DNA from: Candidatus Magasanikiibacteriota bacterium
Lineage (GTDB): Bacteria; Patescibacteriota; Patescibacteriia; Magasanikbacterales; UBA922
Assembly (NCBI GenBank): GCA_016193335.1
Contig: JACPSK010000001.1
Location: forward strand, 343,424-407,423
DNA length: 64,000 nucleotides
Reading direction: 5' to 3'
Under the pieces are notes generated by a model. That model did no database searches and was not told where the DNA came from. It was given only the letters and a program-made list of their open reading frames with translations. Made by a program: the position numbers and the translations under genes. Positions 52,499 through 64,000 of this stretch are shown in pieces (the stretch's first letter is position 1; every line of letters starts with the position of its first letter).

Positions 52499-54889
52499 TT
52501 ACTTTTTTTTCCTCGGCTTCTTGGCGACATCATGGCCGCCAAATTGATTACGAAGCGCGGACACTACCTGGCCCGTGTAATTCGGCCGTTTTTTTGATCG
52601 ATTACGGAATAAAAGCGCCTCATGAATGACTTTGTCGGCAACGCCCATTTCGTGAGCTGTTTTGACGGTCCAGGCGCCTTCACCAAGCCCGTCAACGGAT
52701 CCAAAAATTGGTTTGAGATTTTCGCCATACATTTCAAAAGCATTTTTAAGCCACCCGATAAGGCGAGACTCTATGACGCTACCCTTGTTGTAAATATCAC
52801 TCACGCGGGTGAGATCAAGTTTAAAATGAGCTTTTTTAAGAATGGTAAATCCCTCCGCGATGGCTTGCATCATTCCGTACTCAATACCATTATGAACCAT
52901 CTTTACAAAATGACCGGCTCCATGACCAGCGAAAAATTGATACCCGCCGGGCAAGGCAAAATCGCGGAATAGTTGTTCTACAAGTTCAAAATCTTTTTGA
53001 ACTCCGCCGATCATAAGACAGGCACCACGGCGGGCGCCTCCGGGGCCACCGGATGTTCCCGCGTCTAAAAATTTGATCCCATATTTTTTTAACTTTGCTG
53101 CGCGTCGGGTAGTGTCCTTGTAATAAGAATTACCACCGTCAATTACCATGTCACCCTTTTTGAGATACTTGGTAAGACCATTTTTACCAAATAAAACTTC
53201 ATCCACCGGCTTTCCGGCCGGGATCATAAGCCACACAATCTTTTTTGGTGACAATTTTTTGATTGCTTCCCCAATACTATATGCCGGCACGAGACCTTCC
53301 TTTGCCAATACTTCGGTGGCATCCGGAGTATGGTTGTATCCAACTACTTTCCAATTTTGATCCATCATTCGCCGCGCCATATTTCCACCCATTTTTCCCA
53401 AACCGATAATAACCATTTCCTTGCATAACCCATTAGTTGGTGCCTTAGTTCCAATTCGATTGGCATCCACAATCATTTTGTTTGTTCCCGGCGCGTAATT
53501 AACAAGTGGAACTATATTTTTTCTCCACGCGTTTTCTACGGGGTCGGTAAACTTCCACTCCGCCATTATTTCTCGTTCGGAAACAAAACTGTCCAGGTCG
53601 CCCATTAAACAATTAAAGATAAGTTCGGCATATTCTTCGACGTATTGAGTTTTTTGCGCGTGCTCGTAAAGAAAAAAATTAAAAACACGTTCTTCAAGTT
53701 TTTTTTCAAAACCCGGAGTCTTGGTCCAGAAGTGAATGGAGATGCGATCTTCCGGCGCCAAACTAAATACCACTTGATTATGTATGTGACGGTCTGGAGC
53801 ACACGCCACGCAGAGGCTTGGATGCTTCATCGTAACCACAATTTCTTTTTTGGACTCAGGGCAACGTTTGCCCGCCTCAAGAGTGACGGGAATACCCTGC
53901 CAAGCTGGATGAGTAAGTTCGGTTTTCAACTTAAAATAGGTTTCAGTCCCGGATTTTGGCGACACCCCCGCGATACTTTTAAAACCGTCGTATTGAGCGC
54001 GGAAGGTATTGTGTTTGATATCTTGGCTTGTCCACAATGCAAGTGATTCCAAAATTTCCGCCCGGCGCGCACGGTGTGTTTCGGCGTTCATATCGCGCGG
54101 TATGTCCATGGTGAGAGTCGCAAGCATTTGCAGTAAATGATTTTGCCCGACATCTTTAAATGCCCCTACGGCATCGTAAAAAGCGCCCCGATCTTCAGCA
54201 CCGATGGTTTCGAGCAGCCGCACGTCGATGCGTTCGATTGAACTTTTATCCCAGGAGCGCTCAAATAAGTTGTTTGAAAAACGAAAATGTAAAATAGCTT
54301 GTACGATCTCTTTGGCTAAATAATGGTCGATTAAGTATAATTGTTTTTCTTTAAAGTATTTTTTTAAAAGAGTAAATAATTTTTTTGCACTTTTTTCATC
54401 AGCCCCAAAAGGCTTCTCAACCAAAAGGCGTGTCCAGCCCAACTCGCCGCCGCAGGGAATATTTAATCCCACCTTAGCCATGTTTTGAAAAATAATTTCA
54501 AAATGTTCCGGTGGTACTGCCAGATAGAATAATTTATTGGTGCACACACCCCACTCATTATCAATATTTTCTAATTCATTTTTAAGATTAGCAAAAGATG
54601 TGGCGTCAGAAAATTCTCCGGTTGTGTAGCTGAATCGTTCTATGATTTCATTAACCATTTTTTTATCGGCCTCGAGTATCCGCTCTTGAATGTCAGCGCG
54701 CATTTGCTTTCGGAATTGATCGTTCGACATTTCTCTTCTCGCCATACCCACCACGCGAAAACGTGTAGGGAGTCGTTTGTTAATATAAAGATGATAGACC
54801 GAAGGCGCGATTTTTTTCTTTACCAAATCTCCGGTTGCGCCAAGCACGACCAGAATAGTGGGGATTTCAATGGTAAGCGGTGCTTTCAT
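52499..54889 (-). CDS. zwf-gnd: Fusion protein: glucose-6-phosphate dehydrogenase (N-terminal, about 480 aa) plus short-form 6-phosphogluconate dehydrogenase (C-terminal, about 300 aa)
   Basis: N-terminus VVLGATGDLVKKKIAPSVYHL and the EKPFG active-site region are G6PD signatures. The C-terminus has a Rossmann IIGLGKMGGNMARR and a 6PGDH catalytic region (GHFVKMVHNGIEYGMMQAIAEGF). One ORF without an internal stop. Confidence 0.7.
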   Translation of the reverse strand: MKAPLTIEIPTILVVLGATGDLVKKKIAPSVYHLYINKRLPTRFRVVGMARREMSNDQFRKQMRADIQERILEADKKMVNEIIERFSYTTGEFSDATSFANLKNELENIDNEWGVCTNKLFYLAVPPEHFEIIFQNMAKVGLNIPCGGELGWTRLLVEKPFGADEKSAKKLFTLLKKYFKEKQLYLIDHYLAKEIVQAILHFRFSNNLFERSWDKSSIERIDVRLLETIGAEDRGAFYDAVGAFKDVGQNHLLQMLATLTMDIPRDMNAETHRARRAEILESLALWTSQDIKHNTFRAQYDGFKSIAGVSPKSGTETYFKLKTELTHPAWQGIPVTLEAGKRCPESKKEIVVTMKHPSLCVACAPDRHIHNQVVFSLAPEDRISIHFWTKTPGFEKKLEERVFNFFLYEHAQKTQYVEEYAELIFNCLMGDLDSFVSEREIMAEWKFTDPVENAWRKNIVPLVNYAPGTNKMIVDANRIGTKAPTNGLCKEMVIIGLGKMGGNMARRMMDQNWKVVGYNHTPDATEVLAKEGLVPAYSIGEAIKKLSPKKIVWLMIPAGKPVDEVLFGKNGLTKYLKKGDMVIDGGNSYYKDTTRRAAKLKKYGIKFLDAGTSGGPGGARRGACLMIGGVQKDFELVEQLFRDFALPGGYQFFAGHGAGHFVKMVHNGIEYGMMQAIAEGFTILKKAHFKLDLTRVSDIYNKGSVIESRLIGWLKNAFEMYGENLKPIFGSVDGLGEGAWTVKTAHEMGVADKVIHEALLFRNRSKKRPNYTGQVVSALRNQFGGHDVAKKPRKKK

Positions 54890-54893
54890 ATGG

Positions 54894-55502
54894 CTACGAA
54901 ATTACGGGCAAACCCGCTAATTCTTCCTTATTAATTTTAATATACAATGGATTTCTTTTCAACGCCGGTTTTCCGTTATGTTCGACCACGTAGTAGGCAA
55001 ACCCGCGCATTTTTTTAACAATTTCGTAATCGGCGTGGCCAGGCATACTAACTGGATTGGCTTCATCGAAATTTACCGGACTGTCGTCGGCCGTGACAAA
55101 ATAAATACTGCCGGTATTAACTGCTAAGTGTCCGTAACCAGGCGACATATAGACGCTGTCGCCGGCTTTGACCGGAATCGCGATAAATTCCTCAATAACA
55201 TCGGGGATGGACTGGCCTTGCTCATCTACCGCCATTTTTTGTTTGAGCACAATCCCCTCGCCAAACAAAACCCAGTAGGTCTCGTCAAGCTGACCGATGT
55301 GATAATGTCCGTACGTTTTGATGTATTCACCACTGATAGTTCCCGGTTCCCACACGGTAATGTTGCGCTGGTCGCTGCCGCCGCGGATCATATAGTAATG
55401 AATGGCCGGGCCGGCGCTATTCGGATCCATAAGAACTTCCCGCATTTTCGCCTGATCACGGGCGGCGTAATGTTTTGGGACGAAAGTGAAATCTATGGAC
55501 AT
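54894..55502 (-). CDS. Cupin-type (archaeal-type) glucose-6-phosphate isomerase
   Basis: TYGHYH...E and SPGYGHLAVN match the cPGI signatures TXGHXHX6-8E and PPXXXHX3N; 202 aa. Confidence 0.5.
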   Translation of the reverse strand: MSIDFTFVPKHYAARDQAKMREVLMDPNSAGPAIHYYMIRGGSDQRNITVWEPGTISGEYIKTYGHYHIGQLDETYWVLFGEGIVLKQKMAVDEQGQSIPDVIEEFIAIPVKAGDSVYMSPGYGHLAVNTGSIYFVTADDSPVNFDEANPVSMPGHADYEIVKKMRGFAYYVVEHNGKPALKRNPLYIKINKEELAGLPVIS

Positions 55503-55511
55503 ATAAAAAAA

Positions 55512-56381
55512 TTATTTGGTTAAGTTATTCCAATCAGCAGAAAATTTAACAATCCCTTTTTGAGTCAAGGGATGGCTGATGTCAAACGTCCACCAAGGAG
55601 CCTCGATGTCATAATTTTCGTATACAATATGTTTGCTACCGAGTACTCCCTCATCAACATCCGGCATGGACGTTGGCACGGGCGAGCCAAGCACGATCCA
55701 ATCTTTGATAATCGAAGTCGGAACAGTAATAATATCGGTTTTGAGATACAATGAATATAATAAATGGTTTACGGTCCGTATGCTTGCGACAAGCAGTTCA
55801 ACGTGTCCATCACCGGACGCATACATTTTTTGAATATTTTTTATTAAATCCATACCGTGTTCGTGCCTGTCGTCAAGCCTGCCGTCAAACGGCGAAATAA
55901 ACACCTGCCCCCTGATTGCTCCGCATGTGGCCGCGTACACGGCCGCCGCCTGTGCTTGCGAAAAGCACAGCGTCATGTTTACGCGTAATCCATCTTTTAC
56001 TAATTTCTCAGCCGCTTCAAGACCGGCGGACGTAATGGGCAGTTTAATATGGGCATTGGGAATCCATTTGAACATTTCTTTTCCTTGAGCAATCATTTCT
56101 TGGGCAGTCGTATGTTCGTCTGCATAGACTTCAATTGAAACCGACCCACGTGGTATCTGTTCGGATATTTTTTCCACGATTCCGCGGTAAAAGGCAAAAA
56201 TTTCTTCACGATTAAATTTTTTACCCACTGTCAAACGTTGCATAGCGTCCGGATTTTTTGCAATCAGCGTCGGATTAGTGGTTTGTCCATCGAGCCATCC
56301 GAGTTCCAAGATTATTTTCTTTGTTTCTTGCGGGTCGCCACTATCGAGAAAAATTTTGGTTGAAAGATTTTTTGGTTTCAT
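55512..56381 (-). CDS. tal: Transaldolase
   Basis: IFLDSGDPQE ... DGQTTNPTLI signature; 289 aa. Confidence 0.75.
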   Translation of the reverse strand: MKPKNLSTKIFLDSGDPQETKKIILELGWLDGQTTNPTLIAKNPDAMQRLTVGKKFNREEIFAFYRGIVEKISEQIPRGSVSIEVYADEHTTAQEMIAQGKEMFKWIPNAHIKLPITSAGLEAAEKLVKDGLRVNMTLCFSQAQAAAVYAATCGAIRGQVFISPFDGRLDDRHEHGMDLIKNIQKMYASGDGHVELLVASIRTVNHLLYSLYLKTDIITVPTSIIKDWIVLGSPVPTSMPDVDEGVLGSKHIVYENYDIEAPWWTFDISHPLTQKGIVKFSADWNNLTK

Positions 56382-56455
56382 ATTTTACATGAAAAAATAA
56401 CATTCGCTGTTGGCGCAGTTTACATGGTCGTGGTGGTTTTTTTACAATTGCTCGT

Positions 56456-56539
56456 CTAGGCTCCAACTTTAGTCGTGCAACCGCAGGTACAGCTGCCGTC
56501 ATTGTTGGTGTGTTCGTGTCCACATTGAGTGCATGTCAT
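56456..56539 (-). CDS. 27-aa Cys-rich (metallothionein-like) peptide
   Basis: Not in the ORF track (shorter than 60 aa). Translates to MTCTQCGHEHTNNDGSCTCGCTTKVGA (6 Cys of 27); shares CGH[DE]H and DG[ST]C motifs with the 60-aa peptide at 58621-58803. Confidence 0.35.
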   Translation of the reverse strand: MTCTQCGHEHTNNDGSCTCGCTTKVGA

Positions 56540-56664
56540 ATACATTCTATTAAAAAAATTTACCGTTAATTATTTACCCCCCCCCCACTTGTTTTTGCAT
56601 CATGGTGCTCAAGCGCACCGGCATCATGATGAGAGCGATTAAAATGCCCGTGAGCATACCGCTA

Positions 56665-57048
56665 TTACTCCCATATGCGTAACAGTTTACCCGTGTATTC
56701 TACCACCACGTATAACCAGACTACATACGCCACCGCGCCAACTGCGAGAGTGATGGCGACGATATTGATAATTTCACTCCGCCGTCGTTTTGCTTGATCC
56801 AGAGTGCAAATGCCTTTGGTTTTTCTTAAGTATAACACAATACTGGCCACGAGTAATAGAAATCCAAGTATTCGAAACCACCACCGATATTCACCATAAA
56901 ATACCGTGCCAAGCGAAGCCGCGAAAGTGACTGAACTTAAACCAAACAAAACCAAAATAACCGGACTCAGGCAACAGAGCGATGCCGCAACGACCGGTAG
57001 CCAGGTGATTTTAAAAATTTCTTTCGCTCTCATATCTTTTTCATACAA
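56665..57048 (-). CDS. MerT-like heavy-metal transport membrane protein
   Basis: TM1 carries SLCCLSPVILVLFG, which matches the MerT ACCLGPLVLIALG vicinal-Cys motif. 3 TM and a loop Cys (GICTLD). Start possibly MRAKEIF at 57033. Confidence 0.45.
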   Translation of the reverse strand: MYEKDMRAKEIFKITWLPVVAASLCCLSPVILVLFGLSSVTFAASLGTVFYGEYRWWFRILGFLLLVASIVLYLRKTKGICTLDQAKRRRSEIINIVAITLAVGAVAYVVWLYVVVEYTGKLLRIWE

Positions 57049-57050
57049 AA

Positions 57051-57803
57051 TTACAAATAATTCAAAAGTTTATCGTAATTAATAAAATTAAACGTCTGAT
57101 AAAAAAAAGACATCCAGGTTCCTAAGTTATTCGTAAGCAATAATATTCCCAAAAAAACTAAAAACACGCCGCCAATGAAAGAAATCGTTTTGAGATATTT
57201 ACTGATTTTGTGAATATACGCGGTGGCTGAACTGAACCCAATGGCCACCAAGAGAAAGGGCACAGCTAGACCAAGAGAAAATACCAAAAGCAGGCCGGCG
57301 CCTTGGAGCACAGTCGTATAGGAAGCAGCCAAGGTGAGCACTGTCCCCAGAATCGGTCCAATACAGGGTGTCCAGCCGAACGCAAAAGCCATGCCAAAAA
57401 TAAGCGAACTAAACGGACGGCCGGGTTTCAAAGCGCTAACGTGAAAGCGTTTCTCGCTATTAAAAAATGGAATCTTGAGGAGGTGCATCATGTAGAGTCC
57501 AAAGATAATGACAAACACTCCACCAATCCGAGCCAGCCAATATCGGTATTCCGCGAGGTATGCTCCGCCAAGTCCAAAGACCGTACCAAGTATCACAAAA
57601 ACCGAACTGAAACCAAGCACGTACAGAAGTCCATTAAAAAATATTTTCCGTCTGACCATTTTGGCTCGGTTTGGATCATTAAGGTCGCCAATCGCGACAC
57701 CGCTGATAAACCCCAAATAACCGGGTACAAGCGGCAAGGTACAGGGCGCGAGAAACGTGAGCACTCCGGCCAGAAATGACGAGAATATAAGAGTAAAATC
57801 CAT
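57051..57803 (-). CDS. ccdA: Cytochrome c-type biogenesis / thiol-disulfide transporter CcdA (DsbD TM domain)
   Basis: Two conserved Cys in TM helices (LAPCTLPLVPGYLGF; GWTPCIGPILG); 6 TM; 250 aa. Confidence 0.8.
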   Translation of the reverse strand: MDFTLIFSSFLAGVLTFLAPCTLPLVPGYLGFISGVAIGDLNDPNRAKMVRRKIFFNGLLYVLGFSSVFVILGTVFGLGGAYLAEYRYWLARIGGVFVIIFGLYMMHLLKIPFFNSEKRFHVSALKPGRPFSSLIFGMAFAFGWTPCIGPILGTVLTLAASYTTVLQGAGLLLVFSLGLAVPFLLVAIGFSSATAYIHKISKYLKTISFIGGVFLVFLGILLLTNNLGTWMSFFYQTFNFINYDKLLNYL

Positions 57804-57805
57804 AC

Positions 57806-57973
57806 TTATTTTTGTTCTTCCGGCAAGGCGTGTTTAATAATATCGAGATTGCAACTCTGATGCGCCGCGCACCAGGCCTCACATTGTTCGGCGATCTTTT
57901 GGTCAACATAATTTAAACCACACACTTCACAGGTATACGCGGGTTGCTGATTTTTTTCAATTTTTTTTACCAT
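57806..57973 (-). CDS. 55-aa zinc-ribbon-like miniprotein coupled to ccdA
   Basis: Not in the ORF track. MVKKIEKNQQPAYTCEVCGLNYVDQKIAEQCEAWCAAHQSCNLDIIKHALPEEQK has CxxC plus a CxxxC pair. Stop lies 2 nt before the ccdA ATG. Confidence 0.4.
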   Translation of the reverse strand: MVKKIEKNQQPAYTCEVCGLNYVDQKIAEQCEAWCAAHQSCNLDIIKHALPEEQK

Positions 57974-57985
57974 ATCAAAATAAAA

Positions 57986-58540
57986 TTACGGTATTAATTT
58001 TTTAACCTTGGCACGCATTTCTTCCAATTCCATTGGGCCCCTTTTGTGGTCAGTAATGTCTCCGCGGACATCAACGAAGATAGTCTCAGGCATTGAAAAA
58101 GCGCCAATTCCCCTATAAAAAGAGTCATCCGGATCAAGTAAATATAAAACATTCCCCAGTCCTGCCAGGCGGTCAGTATATTCCCTGGCGATTTCAAGTG
58201 ATTCACCTCGATTTATAGCGATCACCAAAATTTTTTCGCCAAATTCTTTTTGCAGGGTAATAAAATCCGGCAACTCGTTTTTACAAAATGGACACCATGA
58301 CGCCCAGGAGTTAATTACAAGTGTTTTCCCGACTAAACCGCGTAGACTTACGTCCTTTCCACTGTAATCTTTTAGAACCAGATCGGGAATAGCCGTGCTT
58401 TTTGTTGTTTCACTCGTCGGGGTAGCGGCCGATGGCGGAGTTGAAACTACGGGCTTGCATCCCGCTCCCATGATAACCGATACGGTGAAGAAAGTAGTAA
58501 TGAAAAATATTTTCGACATATATTCTTGACTGTAAATCAT
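57986..58540 (-). CDS. Thiol-disulfide oxidoreductase lipoprotein (TlpA/ResA thioredoxin-like family)
   Basis: Lipoprotein signal (IMGAGCKP) and thioredoxin-fold active site WASWCPFCKNELPD. Confidence 0.8.
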   Translation of the reverse strand: MIYSQEYMSKIFFITTFFTVSVIMGAGCKPVVSTPPSAATPTSETTKSTAIPDLVLKDYSGKDVSLRGLVGKTLVINSWASWCPFCKNELPDFITLQKEFGEKILVIAINRGESLEIAREYTDRLAGLGNVLYLLDPDDSFYRGIGAFSMPETIFVDVRGDITDHKRGPMELEEMRAKVKKLIP

Positions 58541-58620
58541 CCGCCTCCGGTTCTGATTGATCAGAACCAGAAAGAATGTCTAAATTATCCTCAACAGGAT
58601 AATTTAGCTGGCTATTTGTA

Positions 58621-58803
58621 TCAGCAAGAGCACGTTGCGCAGTCGCAGCTGCCGCAAGTCCCATCACCATCTTTATGCTTGTCGTGGCCGCATGATGAAC
58701 ACGAACCACCATCGCTTGTTTTCATGCCACACGTGTGTGTTGCGCCCTCGACTCCGGCGCAGGCCTGGCATGAACCGGCCGGCATTGGTTGAGACTGATC
58801 CAT
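58621..58803 (-). CDS. 60-aa Cys-rich metallothionein-like peptide
   Basis: 13 Cys of 60 aa (SCQAC..THTCG..GSCSSCGHDKHKDGDGTCGSCDCATCSC). Low-complexity metal-binding character; sits in the redox operon. Confidence 0.45.
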   Translation of the reverse strand: MDQSQPMPAGSCQACAGVEGATHTCGMKTSDGGSCSSCGHDKHKDGDGTCGSCDCATCSC

Positions 58804-58846
58804 AGTATATATAGTTACAAGTTACATTAGTAAATTCGACCTTTGG

Positions 58847-59797
58847 CTATTTAAACAGTTCCGTATCCGGATGCGCCGCTGCCCAACTGAACCAGTAGAC
58901 GGCCACGGGGTTCAAACGCTCGAGCGTCCCGTCCGGTTTCTTTTCAAACAATCGGACCGCTTCGATGTCGGTATCGTACTCTCCTACTATTATTTTCCCG
59001 GCAAGGCTGTCTTCAATTTTCCCGGCCCTCTGAATGGCGACCGGATAATAGGCCTTGGCGTGACCATTTACCACCAAACCGAGAACAAGTTCTTTATCGT
59101 CCAATCGATTGTCAGTATGATTTATCGGGAAGTACGTCCCAGACGTGGTGTAATAATTTCCATATGGGTCGGTGCCGTAATCGCGAATCTGACCGGTGTT
59201 ACGAGACAAGACTTCGCCTTGTGGGAATGCTCTTTTCCAAGCGCCAAAGCGAATGATGTCCGATGCTAGTACCTTAAGTTTTGTACCCGTCATGTCCCCG
59301 ACGATCGCCTCACCAAGCACTTGGGACCACAAACTATGTGTTTTTCGGTCATACATCACGAGGTTTGAATTCCATAATTTCCCCGAAGTGCCAAATTCAA
59401 CGCGTTCACCGGCCACTACCGGATCAAATACAATGCCCGAACGACAGAGCGGACAATAGGTCACGAGCACGCGAATATCATCGAACAAGTCATTCACTAT
59501 TTCGTGCCATACCAAAATTTGAAAAGGATAAAAACGAGACCGGCCTTTATAATTAAGTGCCAAACCAATTTCAGCTTCACTTAAAAATTTTTCCGCTTCA
59601 TCAATTGCAACAAATTGCGGGTGGTCAATCGGAGGAATCCCGTCGGGCGGCGGGCCACCGTTCACAATTTCATCCAAAGGAACACTACGCTTTACCCCGC
59701 CAAAAAGACGAACCTGTTTTTCATAACCCCGCCAAACCAGCAAGCTTGGTACCAAGAGCGCAATTGCTATAATGGCATAGGTTATTTTTTGCGACAT
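58847..59797 (-). CDS. DUF3179-family protein (secreted or membrane-anchored)
   Basis: N-terminal TM/signal and the conserved GGPPPDGIPPIDHPQF block typical of DUF3179. Confidence 0.6.
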   Translation of the reverse strand: MSQKITYAIIAIALLVPSLLVWRGYEKQVRLFGGVKRSVPLDEIVNGGPPPDGIPPIDHPQFVAIDEAEKFLSEAEIGLALNYKGRSRFYPFQILVWHEIVNDLFDDIRVLVTYCPLCRSGIVFDPVVAGERVEFGTSGKLWNSNLVMYDRKTHSLWSQVLGEAIVGDMTGTKLKVLASDIIRFGAWKRAFPQGEVLSRNTGQIRDYGTDPYGNYYTTSGTYFPINHTDNRLDDKELVLGLVVNGHAKAYYPVAIQRAGKIEDSLAGKIIVGEYDTDIEAVRLFEKKPDGTLERLNPVAVYWFSWAAAHPDTELFK

Positions 59798-60768
59798 ACA
59801 GATTTTACTTTAGACATGGTCGGCCGGGCATGCCACGGACACAACTCGCCGTGAATCTTGTGATCGTCATAGGCAGACGTAGCCGCCACCGCGCCCGTTG
59901 CCGCCGCGGTAATATCTTGCTTGAAGGCGCCGAAGTGATTCACTGCGTCCCCAGCCGAAAAAACGCCATCCACGTTTGTTCCCATCAGATTGTCAACTTT
60001 TATATAGCCCTTCTCATCGAGCTCAAGCCCAAGTTGTTTAGCCAGTTCGATATTCGGAACCGCGCCAATTTCCACAAATAAGCCATCAACAACAAGTTCA
60101 GATGATCCATTATATTGTTTGGATAGGGTAATTTTTTCCAACTGCTTTTCACCAACTGCCGCAGTGACCTCAGTTTCAAAAAGTACCGTAACCTTATTGC
60201 CGAGAGCCTGCATCCGTTCATAGTTAATGGGATCAGCCTTAACTTCTTTGCCGCGGACAATCAAATAAATTTTACTCACGTATTCGGCGGCTAAATTTAA
60301 TCCTTTCACGGCCGCGTCACCGCTACCAACGAGCGCGATCGTTTTATTTCGGTACAACGGTCCATCGCAGGTCACACAATAACTAATACCATGGCCGGTT
60401 AATTGTTTTTCATTCGGCAACCCCAGTTTACGACGTTCCGCGCCCTGAGCCAGAATAATTTCGTGCGCTTGATATATCTTGTCGCCAGCGGTGACTTCAA
60501 AACAATGCTCGGCACGCTTTATCGACGTAACTTTAGCGTCGACAACAGGTGTATCAAGAGCGACGGCTTGTTCTTTGATAAGACTCATAAGTTCAAAGCC
60601 GTCCACAGCTTTGAACCCTGGATAATTTTCAATCTTCCCCGCCAGCGCAGTTTCGCCACCAAGGGTTTCACCGATCACTACCGTCTTCAAACGATAGCGG
60701 GCGGCGTAAATTGCTGCCGAAAGACCAGCCGCGCCCGAACCAACAATGATCAGATCGTACATTTCCAT
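59782..60768 (-). CDS. trxB: Thioredoxin reductase
   Basis: FAD site DLIIVGSGAAGLSAA, redox-active CVTCDG, NADPH site GSGDAA; 328 aa. Confidence 0.85.
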   Translation of the reverse strand: MEMYDLIIVGSGAAGLSAAIYAARYRLKTVVIGETLGGETALAGKIENYPGFKAVDGFELMSLIKEQAVALDTPVVDAKVTSIKRAEHCFEVTAGDKIYQAHEIILAQGAERRKLGLPNEKQLTGHGISYCVTCDGPLYRNKTIALVGSGDAAVKGLNLAAEYVSKIYLIVRGKEVKADPINYERMQALGNKVTVLFETEVTAAVGEKQLEKITLSKQYNGSSELVVDGLFVEIGAVPNIELAKQLGLELDEKGYIKVDNLMGTNVDGVFSAGDAVNHFGAFKQDITAAATGAVAATSAYDDHKIHGELCPWHARPTMSKVKSVCRKK

Positions 60769-60769
60769 A

Positions 60770-61003
60770 TTAAACGCCGAGTAACGCGCTCAGTTTGGCT
60801 TTGTCAAAACCAAGCACTAATTCACCATCAATATCAATCACCGGCACGCCCATTTGTCCGGAGCGTTTCACCATTTCTTCACCCGCGGCCTGGTCGGCCG
60901 AAACATCTTTTTCTTCGTAGGCGACATTGTGCTCTTTAAAAAAGGCTTTGGCCATTTTGCAAAAACCACAGGTTGGCGTCGTATAGATAAGGACTTTATG
61001 CAT
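60770..61003 (-). CDS. Glutaredoxin/NrdH-like small redoxin
   Basis: VLIYTTPTCGFCKMAK active site; 77 aa. Confidence 0.8.
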   Translation of the reverse strand: MHKVLIYTTPTCGFCKMAKAFFKEHNVAYEEKDVSADQAAGEEMVKRSGQMGVPVIDIDGELVLGFDKAKLSALLGV

Positions 61004-61041
61004 ATGGTTGTCTGTTAAAAAAATAAATAAGTGAAGTAAAT

Positions 61042-61341
61042 TTAGCCGCAGATAAGTTTCTCCAGTTGCTTGGTGAACTCATTTCTGATGAGCATATAGC
61101 AGACCATATTACCAATTCGATGCGTTTCAAAATAGCCGTTGTCGCGCATGATCTGTAGGTGATGCGAAACCGCGTTGACACTCATATCCAAACTTTCGGC
61201 AATGTCCGAAACACAGGCTTTGTCGTACTCAAACATAAAACAAAGAATGCGCATTCGCGTTGGGTCGCCGGCCAGTTCGATCAGACGAGCTTTTTTGATC
61301 AATTCAGGATGAATGGGTATTTTTTTATAGTTTGGTTTCAT
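61042..61341 (-). CDS. ArsR/SmtB-family metalloregulatory transcriptional repressor
   Basis: Winged-HTH LAGDPTRMRILCFMFEYDKACVSDIAESLDMSVNAVSHHLQIMR; start set at MKPNYKK (61341). Confidence 0.75.
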   Translation of the reverse strand: MKPNYKKIPIHPELIKKARLIELAGDPTRMRILCFMFEYDKACVSDIAESLDMSVNAVSHHLQIMRDNGYFETHRIGNMVCYMLIRNEFTKQLEKLICG

Positions 61342-61363
61342 AGTTGCTATGGAGTGGTGATGT

Positions 61364-61405
61364 AAGTATACAGTATTCCAATATACATTGGAATACTGTA
61401 TACTT
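61364..61405. promoter_or_regulatory. 19-4-19 perfect palindromic operator, candidate ArsR-family binding site
   Basis: aagtatacagtattccaat-atac-attggaatactgtatactt. The arms are exact reverse complements, and the site lies 23-64 nt upstream of the ArsR start on the minus strand. Confidence 0.55.
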
Positions 61406-61927
61406 AATCCTGTGGATAAACAAAAAATTACGCCGAATAGCGCAAATTCCCCTGTTTCCTCGGCCATAATGCCGAAATCAAGGACAAAACGCTTTCAATC
61501 AATTAAGACGATCCGAAATTTTACGGCGAAAACAAAAGCGGATTTTGCTATTAATCCAAAAAGTTACTTCTGGTGTATCTATACCACCACGCTCGAACCT
61601 ATTTTAGCAAGAATTTTTGAAATGGACGAACGCTCCGCCCCGCCGCCAGCCGCCGCAAAGCGGCGGCCTGCCTCGCAGAAAAACTTTCTTTACAATTTTT
61701 GATTTTGCGCGCGCCACCACTTTTTCTTCTAAAAGGAAAAGAAAGTTTTTCTGCTCGGCTCCGCGCTCAATCGTGCGGGGCGGCGGGGCTTCGCTTCGGC
61801 TCAGGCGGCTTTTTTTTCGGCGGGCTTACCCTTTCCTTACCCCTCCCACCCTGCGCGGAAAAGGTTAAGGAACTCCCTGTGCATAAAATACTTGTTGCGC
61901 CTTTTCTTTTTGTTTGCTATCATTTGA

Positions 61928-62251
61928 ATGTGTATGCAAATGAAAAATATTCAAAAAATTAGAAAAGAACTGAACGACAGGAAAGCGATTCTCCGCTGTG
62001 CCGAGGAATTTAACATGGTGGGCGACCCGACACGGCTCAAAATTTGCTATCTCTTGTGTCGGCACAAAGAACTATCAGTGGGCGAGATTTCAGAAATTAT
62101 CGGCGTTTCCATTTCGGCTGTTTCTCATACGCTCAAAAAGTTGCAAAAGGCGGGCATGGTTGAAAACCGCCGAGAATTCCGAACGGTATATTACAAACTT
62201 AAACAAACGCCCCTTGCCGATATGCTCAAGGAACGACTCAATACTTTATGA
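61928..62251 (+). CDS. ArsR/SmtB-family regulator (probable regulator of the mer operon)
   Basis: VGDPTRLKICYLLCRHKELSVGEISEIIGVSISAVSHTLKKL winged HTH; first gene of the merT-merA operon. Confidence 0.7.
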   Translation: MCMQMKNIQKIRKELNDRKAILRCAEEFNMVGDPTRLKICYLLCRHKELSVGEISEIIGVSISAVSHTLKKLQKAGMVENRREFRTVYYKLKQTPLADMLKERLNTL

Positions 62252-62278
62252 ATAATCTAAAGTCATCAAAAAAAAAGA

Positions 62279-62500
62279 TTGAGTTGTGCAATTACCGGTA
62301 CGTTACTTGTGGCGCTGTGCTGTTTTACCCCTCTTCTAGTTATCGCGCTGATAACGATAGGACTTGGGGCATTTACACCATATCTTGATTACATTTTATT
62401 TCCAGCATTGGCAGTAATGGTCATTGTGACATATCTCTCGTATCGCAAATACAAAAGCGAGTGCGCCAGTTGCGATGTTATAAGTAGCAATAAACAATAA
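62279..62500 (+). CDS. merT: Short MerT-like mercuric ion transport protein (2 TM)
   Basis: TM1 has ALCCFTPLLVIALI, matching the MerT ACCLGPLVLIALG motif; C-terminal CASC pair. 73 aa (MerT is normally about 116 aa). Confidence 0.5.
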   Translation: MSCAITGTLLVALCCFTPLLVIALITIGLGAFTPYLDYILFPALAVMVIVTYLSYRKYKSECASCDVISSNKQ

Positions 62501-62509
62501 CAAGTAATT

Positions 62510-63913
62510 ATGAAAAAATTTGACTTAATAATTATTGGCGGAGGAGCAGGCGCGTTTGCGGCCGCTATCCGTGCCAATGAGCTGAAAGCCAAAACGGCGA
62601 TTGTGAACGCTGGACTTCCGCTTGGCGGCACCTGCGTAAATGTCGGGTGTGTGCCGTCAAAGACACTTCTGTACGCCGGTGAAATGTTACACCACGCCAA
62701 ACATCACGGCGTTGCCGGTGTTGAGCTTGAAGTGAAAAATTTTGATTTTCAAAAAGTCGTGCAAGACGAACTCTCGCTCGTAGAAAAATTGCGCCAAGAG
62801 AAATACGAGAAGGTGCTAAAAAATTTAGAGTATGTAACAGCAATCGAGGGAAAAGCAAAATTTGTTTCTCAAAATGAGATAGAGGTGAACGGCGAAAGAT
62901 TGAGTGCGAAAAAATTTATTATCGCCGCGGGCTCCACCGCCAATGTGCCGCCGATTGAGAGAATCCGTGAGGTGGGCTTCGTTACGCACATTGAAGCGTT
63001 GCGCCTTGAAAAACAACCGAAGGAATTAGTCGTCATCGGTGCAGGCCCTGTCGGCTTGGAGTTTGCCCAACTGTTCAGCCGTTTTGGCACGAAAGTAACT
63101 ATTTTACAGCGCGGCGATTCAATTTTTCCGCACTCTGAAAAAGCTCTTACTGATCAGCTCGCCGAAATACTTTCAAAAGAAGGAATCATTATCAAAACAA
63201 ATGTTGAGGTGAAAAGTGCGCGTAAAGAGAACGGTAAAAAAGTCATCTTGTACACCATAAACAGCATGCAAGAAGAAACGGCCGCGGACGAGATACTTTT
63301 AGCGGCAGGCAAAACACCTAACACGCGAGGGCTTGGCCTCGATGTTGTTGGCGTTGAAGTGAACAAACAACAAGCGGTCGTCGTAAATCAGCATTTCCAA
63401 ACATCCAATCCGAAAATTTTTGCCGTCGGCGATGTAACGAGCGGACCCTTGCGGCTTGAGCCAACTGCCGGACGCGAGGGCACGCTTGCCGCAGAAAACG
63501 CCCTCAAAGGTACAACGCTTTCCATTGATTACAACGCCGTGCCCTATACTATTTTTACCGACCCCCAGCTTGCCGGTGTCGGCTTTACCGAAGATGAACA
63601 AATGAAGCAAATGGGGGTGTGCGCCTGTCGTACGGTTTCGTTTGAGGATGTGCCAAAAGCGATTATCATGCACCGCACCGAGGGAATGATAAAAATGGCG
63701 ATTCATCCGCAAACAAAGCAAATTCTCGGAGTTCACATTCTCGCGCCAAACGCCGGAGAGCTGATCGCCGAGGCGATGATGCTCATAAAAAACAAAAACA
63801 CGATTGACGATGTAACAAATTCCTTGCCGATGTTCCCAACGCTTTCCGAGGCGATAAAAATCGTCGCGCTTTCTTTTACCAAAGATATTTCTAAATTGAG
63901 TTGTTGTATCTAA
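62510..63913 (+). CDS. merA: Mercuric reductase MerA (core form without the N-terminal HMA domain)
   Basis: FAD site IIIGGGAGAFAAA, redox-active GGTCVNVGCVPSK (identical to the MerA motif), pyridine-nucleotide-disulfide oxidoreductase dimerisation domain. The C-terminus ends in a vicinal Cys pair (KLSCCI), the MerA hallmark. Confidence 0.7.
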   Translation: MKKFDLIIIGGGAGAFAAAIRANELKAKTAIVNAGLPLGGTCVNVGCVPSKTLLYAGEMLHHAKHHGVAGVELEVKNFDFQKVVQDELSLVEKLRQEKYEKVLKNLEYVTAIEGKAKFVSQNEIEVNGERLSAKKFIIAAGSTANVPPIERIREVGFVTHIEALRLEKQPKELVVIGAGPVGLEFAQLFSRFGTKVTILQRGDSIFPHSEKALTDQLAEILSKEGIIIKTNVEVKSARKENGKKVILYTINSMQEETAADEILLAAGKTPNTRGLGLDVVGVEVNKQQAVVVNQHFQTSNPKIFAVGDVTSGPLRLEPTAGREGTLAAENALKGTTLSIDYNAVPYTIFTDPQLAGVGFTEDEQMKQMGVCACRTVSFEDVPKAIIMHRTEGMIKMAIHPQTKQILGVHILAPNAGELIAEAMMLIKNKNTIDDVTNSLPMFPTLSEAIKIVALSFTKDISKLSCCI

Positions 63914-64000
63914 AAATATGAGTCAAATATTAAACACCTTGTGGTTTGGTATTCGTGAGCCATTCAAGAAAATGACTTATGCTTATCTTTTTCTCGCCTC

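Follow-up and report, generated by a model that had tools for sequence, protein, structure and literature searches.

Why a bacterium of the candidate phyla radiation (CPR) should encode several very short, cysteine-rich proteins in the midst of genes for thiol redox and mercury transport is the question raised by a minus-strand operon in a metagenome-assembled genome of Candidatus Magasanikbacteria (CPR/Patescibacteria). The operon lies within a 64,000-nucleotide stretch (the window; JACPSK010000001.1, positions 343,424 to 407,423) of a 686-kb contig. CPR bacteria make up a large share of bacterial diversity, and have tiny genomes with few recognisable stress defences. On the best reading of the sequences, the peptides form a novel family of metal-dependent, metallothionein- or metallochaperone-like miniproteins, putative metal binders, and the context in which they are encoded points to thiophilic metals. 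The combined explanation, to which we assign a probability of about 50%, is that the operon represents a mosaic "thiophilic-stress island", repressed by an ArsR/SmtB-type regulator, of which these metallothionein-like miniproteins are a part.

Gene identities in the window were assigned by motif reading combined with Pfam and NCBIfam profiles, and the open reading frame (ORF) coordinates bear out the layout proposed in a first-pass annotation of this DNA: ten ORFs run head-to-tail on the minus strand, encoding, in order, an ArsR/SmtB-family regulator, a glutaredoxin (Grx)-like protein, a TrxB-like flavoprotein, a DUF3179 protein, a Cys-rich peptide of 60 amino acids (aa), a TlpA-like oxidoreductase, a 55-aa miniprotein, CcdA, a MerT-like protein and a Cys-rich peptide of 27 aa. 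The genes thus form a co-directional, closely packed operon with the regulator first; the successive intergenic gaps are 38, 1, -16, 43, 80, 12, 2, 2 and 125 nucleotides (nt), and the 2-nt gap that had been reported between the 55-aa ORF and CcdA is correct. Among the ten upstream stretches inspected, GGAGG was found before TlpA only, so that a missing Shine-Dalgarno sequence at the small ORFs is uninformative. No Rfam match was obtained at E<=1 across positions 54000-64000.

The peptide family is seen most plainly in the last gene of the operon (56456-56539), whose 27-aa Cys/His product (29 aa if translated from 56545) reads C-x2-C-G-H-E-H-x5-C-x-C-x-C. Mining of syntenic loci with a C-x2-C-G-H regular expression, followed by profile search, yielded more than 150 related proteins of approximately 27-85 aa; all of the named ones are annotated as hypothetical, one carries a Pfam domain, and the organisms bear a CPR label wherever the source or the sampled loci give a name. 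Three modules account for their architecture: module A (C-M-A-C-x-C-P-C-[ED]-x-H-x-E-H-x-H), module B (C-x2-C-G-H-E-H-K-x-D-G-x-C-D-C-G-C) and module C (C-x2-C-G-S-x9-G-T-C-C-G-A-E-R), which occur as A+B, B+B, A+A, C+B, C+A+B, B alone, or A fused to a C2H2-like finger. Each module of about 20 aa offers 7 soft or borderline ligands, either 5 Cys and 2 His or 4 Cys and 3 His. When a profile hidden Markov model (HMM) of module B was built from 68 independent homologous modules, with the window sequences left out, the 27-mer was its sole match among the 1848 window ORFs (E=9.6e-10, 35 bits), and all of the module-B ligands, 5 Cys and 2 His, were retained. By this profile the 27-mer is a clear single-module member of the family, as are its homologues P0093, P0114 and P0115 and those in loci L012, L032 and L043. 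Pooled over ten genomes, the ratio of nonsynonymous to synonymous polymorphism (pN/pS) across the module-B core is 0.15 with synonymous sites saturated, which indicates that a protein is conserved here and not a DNA or RNA motif.

With 14.5% Cys and 8.6% His against 0.5% F+W+Y and 3.8% L+I+V, the composition of the family makes a hydrophobic core impossible; in the window, the 60-mer consists of 17% and the 27-mer of 19% Cys, and F, W and Y are absent from both. An AlphaFold2 model built on a 52-sequence A+B alignment contained no secondary structure (predicted local distance difference test, 62; predicted template-modelling score, 0.25), as would be expected if folding depended on metal. Polar N-termini and the lack of an apparent signal peptide suggest that the miniproteins are cytoplasmic. 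Neither the window peptides (at E<=0.1) nor 52 family members (at E<=1) matched any metallothionein model in Pfam or NCBIfam, and PDB sequence and profile searches returned nothing significant for the family. The term "metallothionein-like", which the first-pass annotation had used, is therefore a fair functional label as regards composition and Mer-type neighbours, but it does not denote a match to any known metallothionein family.

The 60-aa miniprotein (58621-58803; GenBank HYY51_01765, hypothetical) contains 10 Cys and 3 His, and the 27-mer 5 Cys, in place of the 13 and 6 Cys first counted; of the two motifs thought to be common to both peptides, DG[ST]C is indeed shared, but the 60-mer reads CGHDKH, in which a lysine interrupts CGH[DE]H. 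Word-indexed searching and exhaustive phmmer over 1.84 billion representatives recovered, besides the 60-mer itself, a single homologue, P0002, with 56% identity, and a ratio of nonsynonymous to synonymous substitution (dN/dS) of ~0.2 between the two shows that the 60-mer is coding. Its relationship to the 27-mer, which had been taken for paralogy, is supported by moderate similarity in hhalign comparisons with the family (50%, E=1.7e-4, full-length and collinear; 61%, E=8e-5), but the module-B HMM misses the 60-mer (score -5.3, equalled by 1.1% of shuffles), and firm paralogy is for this reason not claimed. The gene occupies the slot, from DUF3179 to TlpA, that holds family peptides elsewhere; at the N-terminus of its product, C-Q-A-C...H is similar to the degenerate module A' (C-V-A-C-Q-T-G-K-G-E-H-T-H) of C+A'+B members. 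We consider the 60-mer a probable divergent member of the family, or else an analogue in the family's canonical slot. P0002 itself (66 aa; L001 509-709) is devoid of the Cys-rich C-terminal tail and is encoded outside any redox island, on a 1.4-kb contig, 3' of a transaldolase gene and a gene for a 67-aa membrane protein.

The 80-nt spacer that separates the 60-aa ORF from TlpA holds two perfect or near-perfect hairpins (58546-58607, minus strand; on RNA folding, -38 kcal/mol and z=-6.6, a stability that 0 of 200 shuffles reached), the first located after the 60-mer stop codon and the second pairing with the GGAGG and AUG of TlpA. These hairpins, which match no Rfam family, could serve differential expression, whether by attenuation or by stabilising the mRNA. 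In two other loci (L005 12123-12296 and L010 9187-9360) an unrelated-looking 57-aa Cys-rich peptide (MNESEKKCSTCGGKAAGYKCDSCGVEAAEHDEKHSCGGNHCVAKCANCNQAETKCAC), with a weak zf-HIT match only, is encoded just 5' of TlpA; the slot thus apparently takes interchangeable Cys-rich miniproteins.

The third small ORF (57806-57973) encodes a 55-aa miniprotein with the pattern C-x2-C-x12-C-x3-C-x5-C, which scores above the cut-off for DUF7128 (PF23447; 30.8 bits versus 25.7, E=2.8e-7). Among 89 loci, archaeal ones included, 29 homologues were found, in which each of the five Cys is at least 90% conserved; judged by profile and cysteines, the 55-mer is a true DUF7128 protein with a conserved Cys5 set and no assigned role. 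All three small ORFs hence stand as conserved genes, the 27-mer and DUF7128 in many genomes and the 60-mer with one homologue under purifying selection, so that their reading frames are conserved in related genomes, contrary to the outcome that the first-pass annotation had named as grounds for abandoning them.

The operon is not confined to this genome. A scan for DUF3179, with one genome retained per species, produced 80 loci, mainly from CPR bacteria (Saccharibacteria and Wildermuth-, Giovannoni-, Lipton-, Kaiser-, Taylor-, Azam-, Doudna-, Gottesman- and Yanofskybacteria are among the labels), with a smaller set from DPANN archaea and Methanosarcinales; a handful of records are labelled otherwise, for example as Gammaproteobacteria, Spirochaetes or Actinomycetes. 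Genes were counted per locus by tblastn, with the window proteins and the accessory proteins that recur as queries. DUF3179, TlpA and CcdA were found together in 57 of the 80 loci; these core loci carry, to widely differing extents, an ArsR-family gene (45/57), Grx (42/57), a DSPc/CX5R phosphatase (20/57), a Cys-rich peptide gene (19/57), DUF7128 (17/57), TrxB (15/57) and MerA (8/57), and further accessories encode DoxX, MerC-like and MerT-like proteins, a flavin mononucleotide (FMN) reductase, DUF3105, DUF2703, a DsbA-like protein, a glutamate dehydrogenase-like protein and a protein of ~120 aa with two transmembrane (TM) segments. As the core is kept while the accessories vary, the island is a mosaic assembled round DUF3179-TlpA-CcdA. 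On the evidence of shared gene content, the window operon is a single instance of an island widespread among CPR bacteria and not a peculiarity of this genome, a point that the first-pass annotation had missed.

Within the island, peptide genes usually lie between DUF3179 and TlpA, and when the search was begun from the peptides, four of five look-ups landed in the same island type. Several peptide genes are positioned directly 5' of a gene for the MerC-like protein (Pfam MerC, 33 bits versus a cut-off of 27.6), and a MerC- or MerT-like gene is present in 7 of 20 loci with a peptide versus 4 of 60 without (Fisher p=0.004, ignoring phylogeny and truncated contigs). The DSPc protein, absent from the window, has a protein tyrosine phosphatase-type fold with an HCxxGxxRA(P)T CX5R loop and is usually encoded between TlpA and CcdA (for example, L003 13096-13563 and L082 8212-8691); situated under ArsR and often accompanied by FMN reductase, it may act in the manner of an arsenate reductase. 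In the archaeal loci L061-L080 (DPANN, Methanosarcinales and Thaumarchaeota), DUF3179 is linked to a TlpA-like gene and often to CcdA, with DUF7128 following DUF3179 in L061 and L062 and lying just 5' of it in L075. These archaeal loci yielded none of the Cys-rich peptides of the CPR family; the DUF3179 redox triad is therefore either far older than the peptide accessory or more mobile.

The regulator gene (61042-61341, minus strand; 99 aa) matched Pfam HTH_5 (E=9.3e-14) and NF033788 (63.7 bits versus a cut-off of 55), and the closest solved structure to its product is SmtB. The 99-aa start was preferred to that of a longer, 141-aa ORF (61042-61467), as orthologues align from the inner methionine. 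Each of two cysteines, C43 of alpha3 (CVSD) and C81 of the wing, is shared by 90% or more of the 52 island regulators compared, within the motifs CV[ST][DE] and [MI]CY, respectively. In the alignment Cys43 corresponds to SmtB Cys61, in alpha3; of the CxC pair there, a single Cys is kept, and the second conserved Cys is the one in the wing, a non-canonical two-Cys pattern. The palindrome that had been noted upstream is indeed perfect, but its arms are 20-4-20 (61363-61406) and not 19-4-19: it reads TAAGTATACAGTATTCCAAT-gtat-ATTGGAATACTGTATACTTA, lies 23-66 nt 5' of the ArsR ATG, and occurs once in the window (0.05 expected). Its inner half-site is TATTC[CT]AAT, and palindromes with a similar half-site, of the TATTC[ACT]AA type, precede the closer ArsR orthologues in L027, L028, L015 and L043. 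The palindrome is presumed to be an ArsR operator that overlaps the promoter; a consensus promoter scan gave no sigma-70-type site at the palindrome, so the position of the promoter is likewise presumed. The two cysteines and the shared half-site palindromes lend support to the presumed control of the operon by ArsR without amounting to proof.

The electron carriers of the operon all retain their CxxC or Cys motifs, as the redox logic first proposed for it demands. The Grx-like protein (60770-61003; 77 aa, CGFC active site) belongs to the YruB family (TIGR02196, 96.1 bits versus a cut-off of 88.55; Pfam Glutaredoxin, E=1.7e-21). The gene at 59782-60768, which starts 1 nt after Grx and overlaps DUF3179 by 16 nt, encodes a 328-aa flavoprotein (Pyr_redox_2) that carries CVTC and matched TIGR01292 with E=2e-88 and 296 bits, under the equivalog cut-off of 343.45, and is thus best described as TrxB-like. 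CcdA (57051-57803; 250 aa) is a DsbD-type membrane electron conduit (DsbD_TM, PF02683, E=6e-17, 62 bits versus a cut-off of 27.1), with cysteines in LAPCTLP and WTPCIGP. The TlpA/ResA-like thiol:disulfide oxidoreductase (57986-58540; 184 aa, WCPFC) matched Pfam Redoxin (E=1.5e-17) and AhpC-TSA, and its best NCBIfam matches, TlpA and ResA, were below their cut-offs. DUF3179 (58847-59797; 316 aa, CPLC) is the most conserved gene of the island, with 41-71% identity over the 80 loci (PF11376, E=8.6e-86), and had no significant match in PDB sequence or profile searches. The lipobox-like GAGC at the N-terminus of TlpA and the hydrophobic N-terminal membrane anchor of DUF3179 are read as marks of an extracytoplasmic location. 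The DUF3179 family includes selenoprotein forms with UxxC/T (PMC9312934). Such forms indicate no more than that the CxxC is chemically active.

The MerT-like membrane protein of the operon (56665-57033; 122 aa from the ATG, or 127 from a TTG at 57048) scored below cut-offs, both with Pfam MerT (E=8.6e-5, 23 bits versus 32.9) and with the NCBIfam MerT models (18-24 bits versus 130-180; merT_RC607 weak). Canonical MerT has a Cys-Cys in its first TM helix and a pair of cysteines in a cytoplasmic loop; the window protein has SLCCLSP in TM1, kept in nine of nine orthologues, but differs in possessing a single conserved loop Cys (KGIC) where the canonical protein has a pair. Divergent from the operon and 460 nt away from it, a mercury module on the plus strand (61928-63913) comprises a second ArsR-type regulator (61928-62251; NF033788, 80.4 bits), MerF (62279-62500; NF033565, 75.7 bits versus a cut-off of 50) and MerA (62510-63913; 467 aa). 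MerA matched TIGR02053 with 524 bits versus a cut-off of 454, its residues 4-467 aligning to positions 1-464 of the 465 in the profile, and is a core enzyme without the NmerA domain. Locus L008 has the second ArsR and MerA without MerF beside a much more diverged redox island; there the mer genes share about 81-82% nt identity with those of the window and the island genes 65-73%, so that mer genes may move independently of the island. MerA of L014 is ~80% identical in nt sequence to that of the window. The 460 nt that separate the two divergent ArsR genes (61468-61927) are unusually GC-rich and full of repeats, among them GCC/GGC-rich runs and an imperfect inverted repeat of 29 nt (61670-61698 / 61731-61759), and are without an Rfam match.

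From these features a mechanism may be sketched. A soft metal, most likely Hg(II) and possibly Cu, Cd or As, or else a thiol oxidant, would free the operator of ArsR; NAD(P)H electrons would then pass from the TrxB-like to the Grx-like protein, on to CcdA, and across to TlpA, a relay that would hold DUF3179 and other surface thiols reduced. The Mer-type transporters would carry metal across the membrane, and the miniproteins, lacking a core, would fold only round metal ions, buffer the metal in the cytoplasm, and possibly deliver it to the MerA without NmerA. We infer the single transcript, the electron path, the inducer and the binding of metal alike from sequence. The adjacency of the TrxB-like and Grx-like genes suggests, by analogy, a dedicated reductase/redoxin couple. 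A bolder form of the explanation is put forward tentatively and falls on the doubtful side: that the modular A/B/C peptides would constitute a CPR-specific superfamily of prokaryotic metallothioneins or metallochaperones that replaces low-molecular-weight thiols and NmerA, either moving Hg(II) or another soft metal from MerT/MerC/MerF-type transporters to core MerA or sequestering it, within a horizontally shuffled ArsR island whose DUF3179-TlpA-CcdA core would be an unrecognised form of extracytoplasmic thiol protection shared with DPANN archaea.

Several observations count against the thiophilic-stress explanation. Approximately 49 of the 57 islands are without MerA and about two-thirds without a peptide, which means that mercury is not the universal function of the island. 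The DSPc/CX5R phosphatase, DoxX, FMN reductase, DUF3105 and the glutamate dehydrogenase-like protein are a poor fit to a pure mercury system, and may point to arsenic, to sulfur, or to oxidative stress in general. No role is assigned to DUF3179, which is the true core of the island; the membership of the 60-mer in the family is statistically not secure; and the p value for the co-occurrence of peptides with Mer-type genes is uncorrected for phylogeny and for truncated contigs.

The absence of MerA from most loci is also what would be expected if the island were a general extracytoplasmic thiol-repair or reducing pathway with no specificity for metal, in which the peptides would act as cytoplasmic thiol buffers or redox substrates in glutathione-free cells. 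Such a pathway would have its analogues in the CcdA-thioredoxin-like systems from which methionine sulfoxide reductases at the cell surface, or the maturation of cytochromes, are supplied. We regard this as unlikely. In its favour, the DUF3179, TlpA and CcdA core, with or without Grx, reaches DPANN archaea and Methanosarcinales without mer genes, DUF3179 has the UxxC/T selenocysteine forms typical of redox enzymes, genes for DoxX, DsbA-like and second TlpA proteins recur, and one A-module peptide adjoins genes that resemble those for low-molecular-weight-thiol biosynthesis. A pathway indifferent to metal would not explain why the regulator falls in the metal-sensing ArsR/SmtB subfamily with the alpha3 Cys position kept, nor why MerT-like, MerC-like, MerF and MerA genes are recurrent neighbours, enriched at peptide loci; moreover, the invariant His residues beside the cysteines (GHEH and H-x2-H-x-H) are typical metal ligands and not redox groups. 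The A-module peptide in question, P0116 (module A plus a zinc finger; L086 4552-7180), lies outside the island, and its neighbours, a PIG-L deacetylase, a cysteinyl-tRNA synthetase (CysRS)-like ligase and a family 4 (GT4) glycosyltransferase, are reminiscent of bacillithiol- or mycothiol-type low-molecular-weight-thiol biosynthesis.

If the invariant His and Cys are metal ligands, the metal might still be structural. The miniproteins would then be zinc-ribbon or zinc-knuckle regulators or adaptors, acting as Zn-thiolate redox switches or as partners of membrane proteins and not as metal sinks. Peptide genes do tightly adjoin a gene for the ~120-aa two-TM protein or the MerC-like protein, module A is fused in some members to a C2H2-type finger (P0091, PF13894), the DUF7128 protein of the same operon is Cys5 and zinc-ribbon-like, and a PDB profile search detected weak similarity of CxxC...CxxC to rubredoxins and zinc ribbons (E 0.1-0.8). 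Seven ligands per module of ~20 aa, on the other hand, exceed the needs of one structural Zn and are typical of clusters; the modules are freely shuffled and duplicated (A+A, B+B, C+A+B) in the fashion of metallothioneins, and AlphaFold2 returned no ribbon fold. Structural zinc is on these grounds an improbable account of the peptides.

We think it very improbable that the Cys-rich ORFs are regulatory leader peptides or precursors of ribosomally synthesised and post-translationally modified peptides (RiPPs). The two strong hairpins 3' of the 60-aa ORF, one of which masks the TlpA ribosome-binding site, would suit a Cys-codon attenuator, and short Cys-rich peptides do recall some RiPP precursors; a leader, however, requires its regulatory codons alone, and here the non-Cys residues G, H, E, H, K, D and G are conserved like Cys, at the low pN/pS given above. 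The modules are also duplicated and fused, the 27-mer stands at the end of the operon, and no gene for a radical-SAM, YcaO, lanthipeptide (LanM) or other maturase turned up in the window operon or in those related loci that were annotated through Pfam or through similarity to reference genes. It is largely refuted, and barely credible, that the small ORFs arose by chance or are pseudogenes in decay, without a product. In favour of that view, no Shine-Dalgarno sequence precedes any of them (which says nothing where GGAGG is confined to one gene in ten), a G10 tract and a possible gene remnant come before the 27-mer, and the 60-mer has but a single homologue. Against it, both peptides are under purifying selection, their operon position is conserved, and the 27-mer matches its HMM at E=9.6e-10 with seven ligand residues intact.

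The thiophilic-stress explanation places the operon in a known functional kind, in which a repressor of the ArsR/SmtB type controls a small, Cys-rich protein that binds metal, and a reducing pathway of the CcdA-TlpA type is encoded alongside. The enzymes of the operon come from known families, but the island unit and the peptide family appear to be undescribed; neither was found described in the literature on their domains, on CPR metallothioneins and small proteins, or on CPR MerA. Like the bacterial metallothioneins (SmtA/BmtA, PF02069, and Mycobacterium MymT), the miniproteins are tiny and modular, with 14-19% Cys, His as co-ligand, and hardly any aromatic or aliphatic residues. The smtA gene is paired with the gene for its repressor, smtB, and the miniproteins are similarly encoded near an ArsR/SmtB-type repressor. 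They have no detectable sequence relation to the metallothionein models of Pfam or NCBIfam and differ in module motifs, and unlike a two-gene metallothionein locus, their genes are embedded in an island of thiol-redox and Mer-transporter genes.

A second likeness is to MerP and NmerA, of the HMA fold, and to the Sulfolobus TRASH protein, which are small Cys proteins encoded together with Mer transporters and MerA. Proteins of the MerP, NmerA and TRASH types relay Hg(II) between thiol pairs. The mer operons of Sulfolobus combine ArsR-type regulators with small Cys metal-binding TRASH proteins (PMC3466566). The miniproteins differ from all of these in that no HMA or TRASH domain was detected in them with Pfam, and in that most islands with peptides are without MerA. 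The window MerA leaves the role of NmerA vacant, and the peptides might conceivably hand metal over to it in that role.

The redox half of the operon resembles the CcdA-TlpA/ResA/Etrx systems and the ScsB/C/D copper-tolerance systems, in which a DsbD_TM conduit is combined with a WCxxC thioredoxin-fold lipoprotein and a cytoplasmic donor of thioredoxin type. CcdA-TlpA/ResA/Etrx systems serve in cytochrome c maturation (system II), in sporulation (StoA) and in surface repair by MsrAB; CPR bacteria are generally without c-type cytochromes. Unlike in those systems, the conserved partner here is DUF3179, control by ArsR is presumed, and Mer-type transporters and Cys-rich peptides accompany the pathway. 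The TrxB-like gene situated 1 nt from a YruB-family Grx-like gene recalls Cp34/Cp9 of Clostridium pasteurianum, a couple of thioredoxin reductase-like flavoprotein and glutaredoxin-like protein that reduces peroxiredoxin; unlike in the Cp34/Cp9 system, no AhpC-type peroxidase is encoded here, and the likely acceptor is CcdA.

The island would thus be a widely shared CPR accessory in which an NAD(P)H-driven thiol relay is coupled to Mer-type transporters, and it gives DUF3179 and DUF7128 a concrete functional context. Domain databases lack its miniproteins, of which some are too short for annotation. Should the miniproteins bind metals, they would extend the few known bacterial metallothioneins by a new sequence class, and would offer a testable answer to how a core MerA without NmerA is supplied with Hg(II). 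The peptides are short enough for synthesis, which makes the central claim cheaply testable.

One further ORF lies on the minus strand between the MerT-like gene and the 27-mer. It encodes a hydrophobic peptide of 27 aa (56574-56657; MLTGILIALIMMPVRLSTMMQKQVGGG), ends in a G10 homopolymer, and resembles the C-terminus (…LLFMMPIRLAKLMKENR) of a 121-aa protein from L004 (9 of 21 residues; tblastn E=0.11). The ~120-aa two-TM protein, which has no Pfam match, is encoded directly 5' of the peptide gene in L003, L004, L012 and L022, the same position as that of this ORF, which may, on this weak resemblance, be a truncated remnant of the two-TM partner gene.

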